32,000 nt of DNA from Patescibacteria group bacterium (lineage in GTDB: Bacteria; Patescibacteriota; Patescibacteriia; 2-01-FULL-39-33). How positions within the stretch are numbered: position 1 is the stretch's first letter; each line of letters opens with the position of its first letter. Location: positions 150,001-182,000 of the forward strand of contig JBAZMW010000002.1 in NCBI GenBank assembly GCA_041649575.1, given 5' to 3'. Positions 16,007 through 20,212 of this stretch are shown here, piece by piece. The notes below the pieces were generated by a model. The model ran no database searches. It saw only the letters and a program-made list of their open reading frames with translations, and was not told the DNA's origin. Position numbers and translations under genes: made by a program.

Positions 16007-19000
16007 ATGCCAGAAAAAGGACTATCTTTAAATGCCGAGCAACAAGCCGCGGTTCTTCATGATCAAGGGCCGCTTTTAATCGTGGCTGGCGCCGGCACCG
16101 GCAAAACCACGGTGATTACCGAAAGAATAGCTTATTTGATAAAAAACAAAAATTGCCGGCCGGAGGAAATTTTGGCCCTAACCTTTACCGACAAAGCCGC
16201 CGGTGAAATGGAGGAGAGAGTCGATCGTCTTTTGCCTTACGGTTATGTCGATTTATGGATTCACACCTTTCACGCTTTTGCCGAAAAAGTTTTACACGAC
16301 CACGGCCTGGAAATTGGTCTGCCCAATGATTTTAAGCTGCTCAGTACCACCGAGCAATGGCTTTTGGTTCGTCAAAATTTGGAAAAATTTCCACTGGATT
16401 ATTACCGGCCGCTGGGCAACCCGGTCAAGTTTATCCATGCCTTGTTAAAACATTTTTCGCGCGCCAAGGACGAGAATATTTCTCCCGCAGATTATCTAAA
16501 TTATGTCCAGGAATTAAAGCTTAATGCCGATGGCGCAGAATTTATTAAAACCATCATCGACGAAGAGACCAAAAAACAATTAAGCAAAAAAGAACTTAAA
16601 GAAATTTTGGCCCAGGAAATCGCCAAGCAGACAGAGGTGGCCGAAGCCTATCACAGCTATCAGCAGTTGCTTTTGGCCAACAGCGCGCTGGATTTTGGCG
16701 ATCTAATCAATTACGCCCTGAAACTCTTTACCACCAGAAAGAATATTCTTTTGAAATACCGCAACCAGTTCAAATATATTTTGGTTGATGAATTTCAAGA
16801 CACCAATTACGCTCAATATGAATTATTGAAGCTTTTGGTCGGGCCTCAAAGCAACCTGACGGTGGTCGGCGATGACGACCAGTCGATTTATAAGTTTCGG
16901 GGCGCTTCCATTTCCAATATTTTACAGTTCAAAGACGATTATCCGCAGGCCAAAGAAATTTTTCTCAACCAGAATTACCGCAGTTGTCAGAATATTTTAG
17001 ATTTGGCTTATCGTTTTATCAAGCAGAACGATCCTTATCGTTTGGAAGTCAAGCTGGCTGGCGCCAGACAGCTTTCCAAAAAGCTCTCGGCTCAAAAGGA
17101 CGGCCAAGGGGAAATCATTCATCTCCATGGCCGCCAGTTGGCCGACGAAGTGAAACTGGTGGTGGAAAAAATAATCAAGCTTTATAACAACTCTCAAGCC
17201 GTCTCCTGGTCGGACTTCGCCGTTCTGGTTCGAGCCAATTCCAGCGCCGATGATTTTTGCTACGCTCTGGAAATGGCTGGCGTTCCTTTTAATTTTGTCG
17301 CTTCCAAGGGCCTCTATTCCAAGGCGGTGGTTTTGGATCTTTTGGCATACCTGAAACTATTGGACAATTATCACGAGGGGCCGGCTATGTATCGCTTTTT
17401 GACGTTGCCGGTTTGGCAGATAAGTCAGAGCGATATCGTCAACTTGAATTATTGGGCCAAGAGGAAAGGCCAGTCGCTTTATGAGACTCTCAAGCAGTCG
17501 GCGGCTCTAAACAATTTTACCCCAGATTTCCAGAGGCAGATTGGTCAGCTTTTGGCGGTGCTGGAGAAGCACGCCCAGCTGGTCAGAGAAAACAAAAAAA
17601 CCACCGAAATTGTCCAAGCTTTTCTGGGCGACACCGGATATCTGAAGCAGCTTTCGGCCACGGATTCTCTGGCCAGTCGCGAACAGCTCGGCTATCTCAA
17701 TCAGTTCTATAAAAAAATCCAAAATTTTGAACAGACTAGCGCCCACAACTCGGTTAAAGATTTTTTGTCTCTGGTGGAGCTGGAGCTGGAAGCTGGCGAA
17801 GAGGGGAGTTTGGAGGTCAACCTGGAGGAAGAAGGCCCCGATACCGTGAAAATCATGACCATTCATGCCGCCAAAGGCTTGGAATTCAAATATGTTTTTA
17901 TCTCTAATTTGGTTGACAAGCGTCTGCCGACAATCGAGAGAAAAGACCCGATAGAATTGCCGGACAAGCTGGTCAAAGAAATTATTCCCGAGGGCGATAT
18001 TCATTTACAGGAAGAGAGACGGCTGATGTATGTGGCCATGACTCGCGCCAAAGACGGTCTGTACCTGACTTCGGCCGCTGATTATGGCGGCGTCAGAAAA
18101 AAGAAACTCTCTCGTTTTCTGACGGAGCTTGCCGATTTGGGTTTGCCGCTGGCGGCCGAAATCAAAGCCGAGAGAGTCGGCGATTTGTCGGCCCGCCGAC
18201 CTGCTCTAAGCGATAAGACCAGAGAAAAGGCCCCCGGCTTTTTACCCAGTAAATTCTCTTTTACCCAACTCAAGGCTTTTGAGAGCTGCCCTTATCAATA
18301 TCGCTTCGCCCATGTCTTGAAGATCCCAGTCAAAGGCAAGGCCCAATTTTCTTTTGGCAAAAGCATGCACGGAACTTTGCAGAAATTTTTTCTGTTGCTT
18401 AAGACCAAGCAAAACAAACGCCAGGGTGATTTGTTCGGCGCTAAAGATGGCAGTTCTGTCGAGGCCAGCGAAGCCGAGCTCTTAAAGATTTATCAAGAGA
18501 CTTTTATCGACGATTGGTATGCCAGCAGAAAGGAGCGTGACGAATATTTTGCCAAAGGCCAGAGGGCGCTTAAAGGATTTTTTGCCCTGCACCAGCTCAA
18601 CTGGCCAAGGGTGGCGGCGCTGGAACAGTCTTTTAATTTTAAGATTGCCGACGGCGGCGTTTATACTCTTTACGGTTTTATGGATCGTCTCGACGAGGTC
18701 GAGGGCGGCCTAAGAATCGTCGATTATAAAACCGGCCAGGCCAAAACCAAACTCTCCCCGGAAGACAAGGAACAGCTTTTGATTTATCAGCTGGCGGCCG
18801 AAAAGGTGCTGGCCGAAAAAGTCAAAGAGTTGGTTTTCTATTATCTCGATGAAAACAAAGCGGTTTCTTTTTTGGGCGACGATAAAGAGCTGGCCGCTCT
18901 AAGGAAAAAAATCATGGCCATCATAGATGAGATCAAAAAAGGGGAATTCCCGCCCAAGCCGGGAGAAATCTGCAAGTATTGTGATTTTAATGGTATTTGC

Positions 19001-19018
19001 GAATATCGTTATAAATAA
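16007..19018 (+). CDS. UvrD/PcrA-type SF1 helicase fused to a C-terminal Cas4/AddB-like PD-(D/E)XK nuclease with a Cys4 cluster
   Basis: Helicase motifs AGAGTGKT, VDEFQDTN, VGDDDQSIY.FRGA, NYRS and MTIHAAKGLEF. The C-terminus has SCPYQY, FMDRLD, IVDYKTG, QLLIYQLA and CKYC-x5-C. Confidence 0.9.
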   Translation: MPEKGLSLNAEQQAAVLHDQGPLLIVAGAGTGKTTVITERIAYLIKNKNCRPEEILALTFTDKAAGEMEERVDRLLPYGYVDLWIHTFHAFAEKVLHDHGLEIGLPNDFKLLSTTEQWLLVRQNLEKFPLDYYRPLGNPVKFIHALLKHFSRAKDENISPADYLNYVQELKLNADGAEFIKTIIDEETKKQLSKKELKEILAQEIAKQTEVAEAYHSYQQLLLANSALDFGDLINYALKLFTTRKNILLKYRNQFKYILVDEFQDTNYAQYELLKLLVGPQSNLTVVGDDDQSIYKFRGASISNILQFKDDYPQAKEIFLNQNYRSCQNILDLAYRFIKQNDPYRLEVKLAGARQLSKKLSAQKDGQGEIIHLHGRQLADEVKLVVEKIIKLYNNSQAVSWSDFAVLVRANSSADDFCYALEMAGVPFNFVASKGLYSKAVVLDLLAYLKLLDNYHEGPAMYRFLTLPVWQISQSDIVNLNYWAKRKGQSLYETLKQSAALNNFTPDFQRQIGQLLAVLEKHAQLVRENKKTTEIVQAFLGDTGYLKQLSATDSLASREQLGYLNQFYKKIQNFEQTSAHNSVKDFLSLVELELEAGEEGSLEVNLEEEGPDTVKIMTIHAAKGLEFKYVFISNLVDKRLPTIERKDPIELPDKLVKEIIPEGDIHLQEERRLMYVAMTRAKDGLYLTSAADYGGVRKKKLSRFLTELADLGLPLAAEIKAERVGDLSARRPALSDKTREKAPGFLPSKFSFTQLKAFESCPYQYRFAHVLKIPVKGKAQFSFGKSMHGTLQKFFLLLKTKQNKRQGDLFGAKDGSSVEASEAELLKIYQETFIDDWYASRKERDEYFAKGQRALKGFFALHQLNWPRVAALEQSFNFKIADGGVYTLYGFMDRLDEVEGGLRIVDYKTGQAKTKLSPEDKEQLLIYQLAAEKVLAEKVKELVFYYLDENKAVSFLGDDKELAALRKKIMAIIDEIKKGEFPPKPGEICKYCDFNGICEYRYK

Positions 19019-19206
19019 CGAGTGTTTTTAGATAATTTTTTTGAATAATATTAAAACTTTTGTTATTGTGGATAATTTTTGGTATTTTCATTTGACATAC
19101 AATAAAAAAAATTTTATATTTTAAAATTATAATGATTATTATAATTTTATTTTGTTTAAATTTAGCTAAATTATTGGTATTTTAAAAAAATTACTATTGA
19201 CAAATA

Positions 19207-19235
19207 TTTATCTATATGATATAATTATAATTGTA
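19207..19235 (+). promoter_or_regulatory. Sigma70-type promoter for island C
   Basis: TTGACA (19207-19212), 17-nt spacer, TATAAT (19230-19235), inside a ~240-bp very AT-rich tract. Confidence 0.5.
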
Positions 19236-19259
19236 AAAAGATAAATAAGATATTTTTCG

Positions 19260-19790
19260 AATCTCCTTGCTCATGGCGTTACGCCAGTTATCTGGATGTA
19301 TCGCCATTGACAAGGGTCTTTGAAAGGCGTTAGAACTATAATTTAGAGGAGGATGGCGCTTTATACGCTGCCAGTCCTGGCTTCAAGATAACTTCTTGAG
19401 GCGAGGCGGCCGGCTAAGCGCCCTGGGAAATCAGGTCACAAAATATAATTTTGCGGGCCGTACGATTCTCCCGCCAATCACCCTCTAATAATTGTTCTAA
19501 AAAATCAGGCGGGGATCTTGTCCCTGCCGCGATGCGAAGGAAGCCAGTGCCCGTAAATCTGCGCCTGTTTGGCGCAGATCAGGGCAGTCAGAAAAAGTTC
19601 GGCAAGTAGCAAAACAAACATCTTTACCGTGGCCGGCAACTTTTTCTCAAGTTTTATTCGTATCGTGGCAGAGGTAAGCGGCCACTGCCCTCTCCTTGGT
19701 GGCAAGCCGGTTTGGTTTGTATGACCGACCGGCTTGCCTCTCTACTTTAGTCAACAAGATTTGTTGACTGGGGCAGGGAAGTCAACGAGG
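19260..19790 (+). other. GC-rich, hairpin-dense non-coding stretch (long 5' leader or independent ncRNA) upstream of the 62-aa zinc-ribbon ORF
   Basis: There is no credible ORF above 25 aa on the + strand. Perfect or near-perfect hairpins lie at 19508-19528, 19557-19579, 19701-19738 and 19749-19769. A 12-codon uORF (19353-19391) has the SD AGAGGAGG. Confidence 0.4.
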
Positions 19791-19800
19791 AGGGCGAGTC

Positions 19801-19989
19801 ATGATTGTACAATGTTGTAAGTGCCTTCGCGTACGCGAAGGTACACAAGGTAGTGAGTGGAGCCAGGAGCCCGGAGAACGTTTGACTGAAACAGACGTCT
19901 CCCATGGGTACTGCCCCGCTTGCACCGAGAAGGCGTTGGCAGAAGTACGCCAACACCATGGACAGAAGGAGGATACGCGGACCGAATAG
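19801..19989 (+). CDS. Small zinc-ribbon protein (62 aa; CxxC ... SHGxCPxC)
   Basis: SD GAGGAGGG 6 nt upstream of the ATG. Sequence QCCKC...W...SHGYCPAC. A terminator overlaps the stop codon. Confidence 0.6.
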   Translation: MIVQCCKCLRVREGTQGSEWSQEPGERLTETDVSHGYCPACTEKALAEVRQHHGQKEDTRTE

Positions 19990-20007
19990 GACCGCGTTTT
20001 AATTTTC
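19976..20007 (+). terminator. Intrinsic terminator ending island C
   Basis: CGCGGACC / GGACCGCG stem with one internal mismatch, loop GAATA, then TTTTAATTTT. Confidence 0.6.
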
Positions 20008-20086
20008 TCAAAAATTATCAATAAATTTTTAAAGCACTCTTGACAACATCTTGTTTTTGATTTTTTTTCTGTGTTATAATTTTTTT

Positions 20087-20212
20087 GCAGGGAAGGATTA
20101 TCACTCGTCATATTACCAGTTACACTTTAAACTCTCTCCCCTTAGTGTGGCCTGGCAATATCCAGAGTGCCTTCTCTAAATCCCGCCTTTACGGCGGGAT
20201 TTATATTTTTTA
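20087..20212 (+). ncRNA. Candidate small RNA (or attenuating leader): ~90-nt extended hairpin plus terminator
   Basis: Extended -10 TGTTATAAT (20072-20080). Nested pairings are 20089-96/20170-77, 20102-06/20165-69 and ACACT/AGTGT. The 17-nt apical loop is TTAAACTCTCTCCCCTT (20127-20143). The terminator is AAATCCCGCC/GGCGGGATTT (20178-20202) plus a T-run. Confidence 0.4.

Follow-up and report, generated by a model that had tools for sequence, protein, structure and literature searches.

A conserved structured RNA family of Candidatus Buchananbacteria and an adjoining zinc-ribbon gene

The locus described here lies in a stretch of 32,000 nucleotides (nt) from a Patescibacteria group bacterium (assembly GCA_041649575.1, contig JBAZMW010000002.1, positions 150,001 to 182,000), which is referred to as the window and is numbered from its first letter. 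The source genome belongs to the candidate phyla radiation (CPR) and comprises 920 kb in five contigs. A preliminary description of the window, made from the letters alone, had noted a consensus promoter, a leader of about 570 nt and a small zinc-ribbon gene, and the analysis has shown that this "leader" is a conserved structured RNA. The parts of the unit from the promoter to the terminator-like hairpin are all on the forward (+) strand. The sigma-70 promoter occupies positions 19197–19225, about 10 nt to the left of the 19207–19235 given earlier, and consists of TTGACA at 19197–19202, a 17-nt spacer and an extended −10 element, TGaTATAAT, with the −10 hexamer at 19220–19225. It scores 12/12 against the consensus with the TG extension present, and transcription would, judging from these elements, start near 19232. 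The promoter is followed by about 770 nt of unusually stable fold with a GC content of 0.53, compared with 0.23 in the flanking spacer. Against dinucleotide-preserving shuffles, the folding z score is −13.0 for 19232–20010, −9.7 for the portion preceding the open reading frame (ORF; 19232–19800) and −6.2 for the ORF plus terminator (19801–20005). The ORF itself encodes 62 amino acids (aa) at 19801–19989, and ORFs between the promoter and 19801 do not exceed 66 aa, so that the absence of a credible ORF over some 570 nt is borne out. A terminator-like hairpin, CGCGGACC-GAAUA-GGACCGCG followed by UUUUAAUUUU, lies at 19976–20005 and was read from the sequence and seen in the fold. Its loop contains the stop codon of the zinc-ribbon ORF. 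A consensus terminator scanner made no call at 19976–20005 because the stem has an A/A mismatch.

The RNA consists of three parts, namely a 5' hairpin, a multi-helix core of about 360 nt and a 3' three-way junction. The 5' hairpin ("5hp", 19256–19324; UUCGAAUCUCCUUG...CCAG-UUAU-CUGG...CAAGGGUCUUUGAA) is 76–84% identical in three other genera by BLAST, and RNAalifold on 10 genomes gave 26 pairs, 15 of which show compensatory changes. The core (19320–19683) matches the covariance model R1, introduced below, with 175.7 bits and E = 8.6e-39. In its helix P1, 19330–36 pairs with 19494–500 (UUAGAAC/GUUCUAA) and 19344–54 with 19477–88 (UAGAGGAGGAU/AUCACCCUCUA). The core also contains a lineage-specific arm at 19353–19430, missing from most relatives, and a hairpin of the form GGUC-ACAA...GGGCC at 19434–19459, of which GGTCACAA and GGGCC are invariant in six genomes. 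The same motif sits in a loop of the 3' domain in genome G016, and the hairpin therefore looks like a movable module. The 3' domain of the core (19514–19683; E = 3.9e-14 with model R2) is the most conserved part. It is built on a long helix, P4, which joins 19516–40 to 19656–78 (CGAUGCGAAGG / AUUCGUAUCG, with extensions) and encloses hairpin P5 (19548–87) and hairpin P6, which has an A-rich loop (19589–19655). Hairpin P3 (GGCGGGGA/UCCCUGCC, 19508–19528) rivals the outer part of P4 for 19516–28, and the minimum-energy and centroid folds diverge exactly there. Folding predicts a comparable competitor in 8 of 18 genomes, which belong to four genera, and a weak ninth case (−2.7 kcal/mol) in G011, while the remaining genomes lack it. 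The sequence of this hairpin co-varies with the P4 strand that it mimics. The three-way junction (19684–19797) has as its closing helix CUCUCCUU (19690–97) paired with GAGGAGGG (19787–94), the Shine-Dalgarno (SD) sequence of the zinc-ribbon gene, the two being minimum-energy partners. Its arms are the hairpins 19701–38 and 19749–69, both of which recur in G007. All four hairpins listed in the preliminary description (19508–28, 19557–79, 19701–38 and 19749–69) are present where it placed them, the one at 19557–79 being the variable tip of P5, and so is its third GTCAAC at 19781. In one genome the 3' domain is duplicated in tandem (L082 / L299, L316; G016:C1:114074-114393).

The evidence for a conserved structure comes from comparative alignment, which had been proposed from the start. 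A consensus fold of 83 pairs, 21 with compensatory changes, was derived from a five-sequence alignment and used to build model R1, and model R2 of the 3' domain was built from 18 sequences. In the alignment of the matches to R1, paired states account for 89.7% of cells, compared with 73.2% in shuffles and 42–46% when partners are slid by 1–3 columns. Compensatory changes occur in 63 of the 83 pairs against 36.6 in shuffles, none of 500 shuffles reaching the observed value, and a row-filtered count gives 64/83, in agreement with the slid controls. Compensatory changes were also found in 18 of the 27 pairs of helix 5. The strand is fixed as + by the many G-U pairs. Strong covariation marks the element as a structured, conserved RNA family.

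The family is confined to one lineage among the genomes searched. Its host family is Candidatus Buchananbacteria and kin, in which R1 gave one match per genome in 18 of 34 genomes. The addition of R2 raised this to 25 of 34, or 25 of the 29 of good quality, each with a single copy, and neither model gave a match in a further 149 genomes, which represent about 90 other families of the class. BLAST of relatives at first recovered the 5' hairpin alone, and inspection of those loci revealed blocks arranged as in the window, with the zinc-ribbon ORF last. The synteny is fixed across 13 genera: the RNA always (25/25 genomes) lies between a helicase-nuclease gene on one side and a second small RNA with the gene for a 126-aa membrane protein on the other. 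Metagenome and viral contigs were preselected by the pattern CGAAGGAGGCN{2,3}TGYTTG, which is too unspecific, and of these R1 matched 1 of 80 metagenome loci (L222) and none of 62 viral contigs. A TTGACAAA...TGTGCTATAAT-type promoter is found 24–300 nt upstream of the RNA in relatives, and the most compact version of the RNA, in G027, measures about 290 nt.

Both the RNA and the zinc-ribbon gene are present in 15 of the 34 family genomes, the RNA only in 10, the protein only in 3 and neither in 6. Wherever the two occur together (15/15), the ORF is on the same strand, 8–516 nt downstream of the RNA, and the gap in compact relatives is 8–30 nt, too short for a promoter or a terminator. None of the ten RNA-only genomes has a zinc-ribbon gene anywhere. 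Six of these were examined. A consensus promoter lies 24–48 nt upstream of the core in four of them, the distance being 120 and 302 nt in the other two. Their GC-rich 3' domain is followed by a terminator-like hairpin, which is weak in G010 and clear in the other five. Beyond it come the conserved second small RNA and then the gene for the 126-aa membrane protein. Two of the protein-only genomes are of genus g7 and one is 86% complete; in all three no RNA was found upstream of the gene even with filters off. The unit tolerates passengers: in G025 (L066 200-2060) and G027 (L002 1570-2240) the 5' hairpin is separated from the core by small unrelated ORFs, one to four in number. Each inserted ORF is trailed by a palindromic element of about 90 nt with ends CCAAAACTATCTTG...CAAGATAGTTTTGG, found in both orientations, and the arrangement resembles that of cassettes or of miniature inverted-repeat transposable elements.

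The RNA matches no Rfam family. In the Rfam scan that had been suggested for the region, Rfam 15 at gathering thresholds gave no match in the whole window or in the loci of three relatives; the models included OLE, ROOL, GOLLD, HEARO, raiA, group I and II introns and riboswitches. When the threshold was relaxed to E <= 10, no match fell inside 19232–19960, all weak ones lying at 19963 or beyond, and ARAGORN reported nothing in the region. The universal RNAs were considered individually. RNase P RNA and transfer-messenger RNA (tmRNA) were rejected, since the genome carries its copies elsewhere (C1:239999-240397, 160.6 bits, and C3:161668-162059, 111.6 bits, respectively). Signal recognition particle (SRP) RNA (RF00169, RF01854) was not matched in the source genome or in any of the 34 family genomes, and a divergent SRP RNA was rejected because no Ffh or FtsY was detected to bind it. 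By hidden Markov models, the source genome has no Ffh M domain (SRP_SPB) or SRP54 domain, and neither a DTAGR nor a TKxDG motif was found in it; tblastn with an approximate E. coli Ffh sequence also found nothing there. No real match to the SRP54 GTPase was obtained in 61 genomes of the class, and both Ffh and FtsY appear to be absent; a quick literature search found no statement on the absence of SRP. An SRP-like candidate at C5:113313 ("GAAA...AGCA") gave no SRP match. The 6S RNA model (RF00013) had no match in the source genome, 6S being poorly conserved in sequence. With its two multi-branched domains, the consensus fold differs from both the SRP hairpin and the 6S rod, the latter being about 180 nt long with a central open-promoter-like bubble. 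With no Rfam match and no description found in the literature open to searching, the RNA family is uncatalogued.

The leader had also been thought to contain a 12-codon upstream ORF (uORF) equipped with an SD sequence. The ORF is present at 19353–19391, within the lineage-specific arm, and is preceded by AGAGGAGG; this sequence, however, is the 5' strand of the conserved helix P1, its partner being CCCTCT at 19480–86. Most relatives lack the uORF, and genus g10 has an AUG at the same spot that opens an unrelated 23-residue peptide. The uORF was rejected as a coding unit because it is not conserved in relatives. Two further proposals, that CTCCTT at 19263–68 sequesters the SD of the uORF and that a segment at 19273 is related to the start of the uORF, did not hold, as the two elements are simply the opposite sides of the 5' hairpin.

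The 62-aa protein (MIVQCCKC...W...SHGYCPAC, with a C-terminal helix) belongs to a widespread family. A pattern and tblastn scan found relatives at 61 loci in public genomes, mostly of Hydrogenedentota and Nitrospirales, with others in Desulfobulbaceae, Parcubacteria/Buchananbacteria and Saccharibacteria. Among 27 sequences from several phyla, twelve columns are invariant (M1, C5, C6, C8, W20, S34-H-G-Y-C-P39 and C41). A profile search of 1.84 billion representatives gave 4527 matches at E <= 1e-3 and 430 at E <= 1e-10. These twelve columns and 4527 related representatives indicate that the small ORF is under selection at the protein level. Most of the 150 best-scoring representatives stand alone, at about 50–100 aa, with an invariant M-x-x-Q-C-C N-terminus. 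The profile also matches P0092 (PAS_9, E = 2e-9), a 343-aa PAS protein with two ICxxCKKIRNEQGVWE...FSHGYCPDC modules. The resemblance to the ICxxCKKIR...SHGxCPxC tail of PAS sensors, pointed out in the preliminary description, is thereby confirmed by the profile search that it had recommended. With four Cys ligands, the SHG[YIF]CPxC signature and homology to the PAS tail, the protein is a member of the CxxC...SHGxCPxC zinc-ribbon family; it shares the zinc module of PAS-sensor C-termini and differs in standing alone. Pfam, NCBIfam and the PDB hold no counterpart of the protein. An AlphaFold2 model has three short strands and a C-terminal helix with a mean predicted local distance difference test score (pLDDT) of 84, and fold (Foldseek) and sequence searches of the PDB gave no significant match. 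A word-index homologue search with the single 62-aa sequence returned no candidates, the index being too coarse for so short a protein.

Outside the CPR, the zinc-ribbon genes have a different upstream region. A sigma-54-type −24/−12 element, GGCAY-N5-NTGC, lies 44–102 nt upstream of the start codon at 29 of 33 loci, compared with just 1.2% of control windows, and the family appears from this element to be a member of the sigma-54 regulon in Hydrogenedentota and Nitrospirota. The source genome has no sigma-54. The stand-alone genes (loci L007-L051; Hydrogenedentota, Nitrospirales and others) are often divergent from an ABC-ATPase gene. In Parcubacteria ARS52 (L005 3420-4186), a 194-aa ORF shares its last 4 nt with the zinc-ribbon ORF and itself carries a similar CxxC...W...CCPxC module at its C-terminus. 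In the window, a perfect 10-bp hairpin, GUGCCUUCGC-GUAC-GCGAAGGUAC, occupies 19820–19843 (codons 7–14 of the ORF) and is not shared by the ORFs of relatives.

The closing helix of the three-way junction is predicted to mask the SD sequence of the zinc-ribbon gene. In the window, GAGGAGGG is predicted to pair with the anti-SD CUCUCCUU, and the probability of an unpaired SD is 0.02. Masking by a long-range helix is likewise predicted in genera g5, g8 and g15 (P unpaired 0.01–0.21 for these and the window), with the SD masked in 6 of the 12 genomes examined. Forcing P3 in silico left the accessibility of the SD unchanged (0.01 vs 0.02), and a link between P3/P4 competition and SD masking was rejected on that ground. 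Translational control of the ORF is thus plausible in the window, but on the same predictions it is not the common denominator of the family.

Taken together, these observations make it fairly probable that the element is an autonomous, abundant structured RNA whose transcript here also serves as mRNA for a zinc-ribbon gene that is structure-gated. The stretch from 19232 to about 20005 would be one transcription unit with a lineage-specific structured non-coding RNA as its chief product. This RNA would act by itself, and its most likely role is that of a scaffold or platform to which cellular factors bind. Here and in 14 related genomes the transcript would continue into the zinc-ribbon gene and so form a bifunctional RNA, and in the window the ribosome-binding site would be locked in the closing helix of the last RNA domain, the protein being made only once that helix opens. 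The retention of the RNA in ten genomes with nothing to regulate argues for an independent RNA gene that is more than a leader. Of the two readings offered in the preliminary description, that of an independent large non-coding RNA followed by a small gene fits best, the RNA being kept without the ORF in 10 of 25 genomes. Its other reading, a micro-protein regulated after transcription, keeps the predicted pairing of the SD (0.02) and loses the uORF with its SD sequestration. The scaffold role is favoured by inference only, because of the ACAA-type A-rich loops, the modular hairpin and the long rod, and by analogy with OLE, ROOL and GOLLD. Several points weigh against this interpretation. The transcript ends, the co-transcription of RNA and ORF, the switching and the activity of the RNA are inferred from sequence. 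Because the pair counts come from an alignment fitted to the model, and from genomes that are kin, the covariation figures overstate independence; for the same kinship, neither 25/34 nor 15/15 counts independent events. The SD is predicted to be open in genera g13 and g10 (P unpaired 0.43–0.94), and masking is not family-wide. The strict order of RNA then ORF could also mean a functional tie, in which the ORF is not a passenger.

Such a tie leads to a different explanation, in which the RNA and the zinc-ribbon protein form an obligate pair, either as a ribonucleoprotein (RNP) or with the RNA delivering or regulating the protein, and the RNA-only genomes represent recent losses or another partner. 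Zinc ribbons are common nucleic-acid binders, the ORF lies directly downstream on the same strand in 15/15 genomes with both, and the compact arrangements imply co-transcription. The adjacency may nevertheless be mere inherited synteny, 10 of 25 RNA-bearing genomes are entirely without the protein, and the protein abounds in Hydrogenedentota, Nitrospirota and Desulfobulbaceae with no such RNA upstream and a sigma-54 promoter instead (29/33 loci), all of which makes an obligate pairing unlikely, if still worth weighing. The same ten genomes bear on the idea that the whole 570 nt are a cis-acting leader, comparable to a giant riboswitch or thermosensor, that serves solely to control the zinc-ribbon gene through the P3/P4 and anti-SD/SD alternatives. 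Such a leader would always precede its gene, and these genomes retain the RNA with no zinc-ribbon gene to regulate, a terminator following it in the six examined (weak in G010). The masked SD of the window and of genera g5, g8 and g15, the co-varying competing hairpin of 8/18 genomes (with the weak case in G011) and the disagreement of the minimum-energy and centroid folds at P3 are what a switch of this kind would predict. The competing hairpin is, however, absent in half of the family, the SD is open in g13 and g10, and forced P3 does not alter SD accessibility, so that a purely cis-acting role is rated as quite improbable.

Two other origins have even less in their favour. The small ORFs and the palindromic elements of about 90 nt in G025 and G027 recall a mobile or cassette-capturing platform, integron-like or phage-derived. 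The RNA is, however, single-copy in a gene neighbourhood that is constant over 13 genera, no gene for an integrase or reverse transcriptase lies nearby, the window locus has neither a recombinase ORF near it nor cassettes within the window, and none of the 62 pattern-matched viral contigs gave a match; a platform of this type is very improbable. If the element were a strongly diverged form of one of the universal RNAs (SRP RNA, 6S, RNase P or tmRNA), this would account for the failure to detect SRP RNA and 6S in the source genome, and SRP RNA in all 34 family genomes. Yet RNase P RNA and tmRNA are encoded elsewhere, there is no Ffh or FtsY for an SRP RNA to serve, the two multi-branched domains resemble neither the SRP hairpin nor the 6S rod, and Rfam gives no match even at E <= 10, which leaves this origin with hardly any probability. 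A bolder extension of the autonomous RNA is that it forms the core of a lineage-specific RNP or RNA-only assembly needed by Buchananbacteria-type CPR cells, in whose class an SRP system, 6S RNA and sigma-54 all went undetected, the co-transcribed zinc-ribbon protein being a conditional partner that is translated when the junction opens. This is speculative and rather unlikely as it stands; if true, the large bacterial RNAs would gain a new functional class, one in which a structure-gated gene for the cofactor is built into the RNA itself.

Known systems offer partial parallels. Among dual-function RNAs, Staphylococcus RNAIII/hld, SgrS/SgrT and SR1/SR1P regulate known targets by base pairing. 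They resemble the present RNA in combining a structured RNA with a short ORF on what is here a putative single transcript; they differ in that the ORF here lies 3' of the structured part and is dispensable in 10/25 genomes. Leaders that sequester the SD include RNA thermometers and the expression platforms of riboswitches. The likeness lies in the predicted pairing of the small gene's SD, where an anti-SD closes off a stem-loop domain at its base. Here, however, no aptamer is recognised, masking is not shared by the whole family and the upstream RNA outlives the gene. The OLE (ornate, large, extremophilic) RNA is an intricately folded, lineage-restricted non-coding RNA of unknown biochemical function, encoded beside a conserved gene for a small membrane protein (PMC3413148, PMC12265935). 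A strong promoter, one copy per genome, a fixed neighbourhood and an adjoining small membrane-protein gene are shared with it. The present RNA differs in having no sequence or structure match to OLE in Rfam, in its host (CPR/Patescibacteria instead of Firmicutes), in lacking a recognised oapA-type partner, the 126-aa neighbour being without a Pfam or NCBIfam match, and in carrying a protein-coding ORF at its 3' end. ROOL and GOLLD are RNAs of several hundred nt that build RNA-only assemblies and whose function is unknown (PMC12286853). Multi-stem junctions, A-rich loops and discovery by comparative genomics are common to them and the RNA described here. Neither model matches it, however. ROOL and GOLLD are patchy in distribution and often associated with phages or tRNAs, whereas the present RNA is chromosomal, syntenic and restricted to one family.

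Large ornate bacterial RNAs (OLE, ROOL, GOLLD, raiA) are rare, and every one of them has led to new biology, membrane RNPs and RNA cages being examples. The present RNA is an uncatalogued family of the CPR, on whose non-coding RNA almost nothing is known. It is nearly universal in a family with genomes of about 0.9 Mb, which can ill afford 0.3–0.8 kb of useless DNA under a perfect promoter. The version of about 290 nt in G027, the presumably co-transcribed zinc-ribbon protein and the predicted SD-masking helix offer experimental handles. The protein result stands independently, as an orphan family of more than 4500 representatives homologous to an unexplained tail of PAS sensors.

The neighbouring units of the window are also conserved. 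The upstream neighbour (16007–19018) encodes a 1003-aa protein in which a UvrD-type helicase is fused to a PD-(D/E)XK/Cas4-like nuclease, and it is conserved beside the RNA in relatives. Downstream, the second small structured RNA lies at 20084–20211 (AGGGAAGGA...CCUUCUCnAAAUCCCGCC-loop-GGCGGGAUUU plus a U-run) and is preceded by promoter-like elements, TTGACA at 20041 and TGTTATAAT at 20073–81. It is kept at the same place in relatives, directly 5' of the 126-aa membrane protein gene, and a DnaA-box-like sequence, TTATCCACA, is found about 45–50 nt upstream of its −10 element in several of them.

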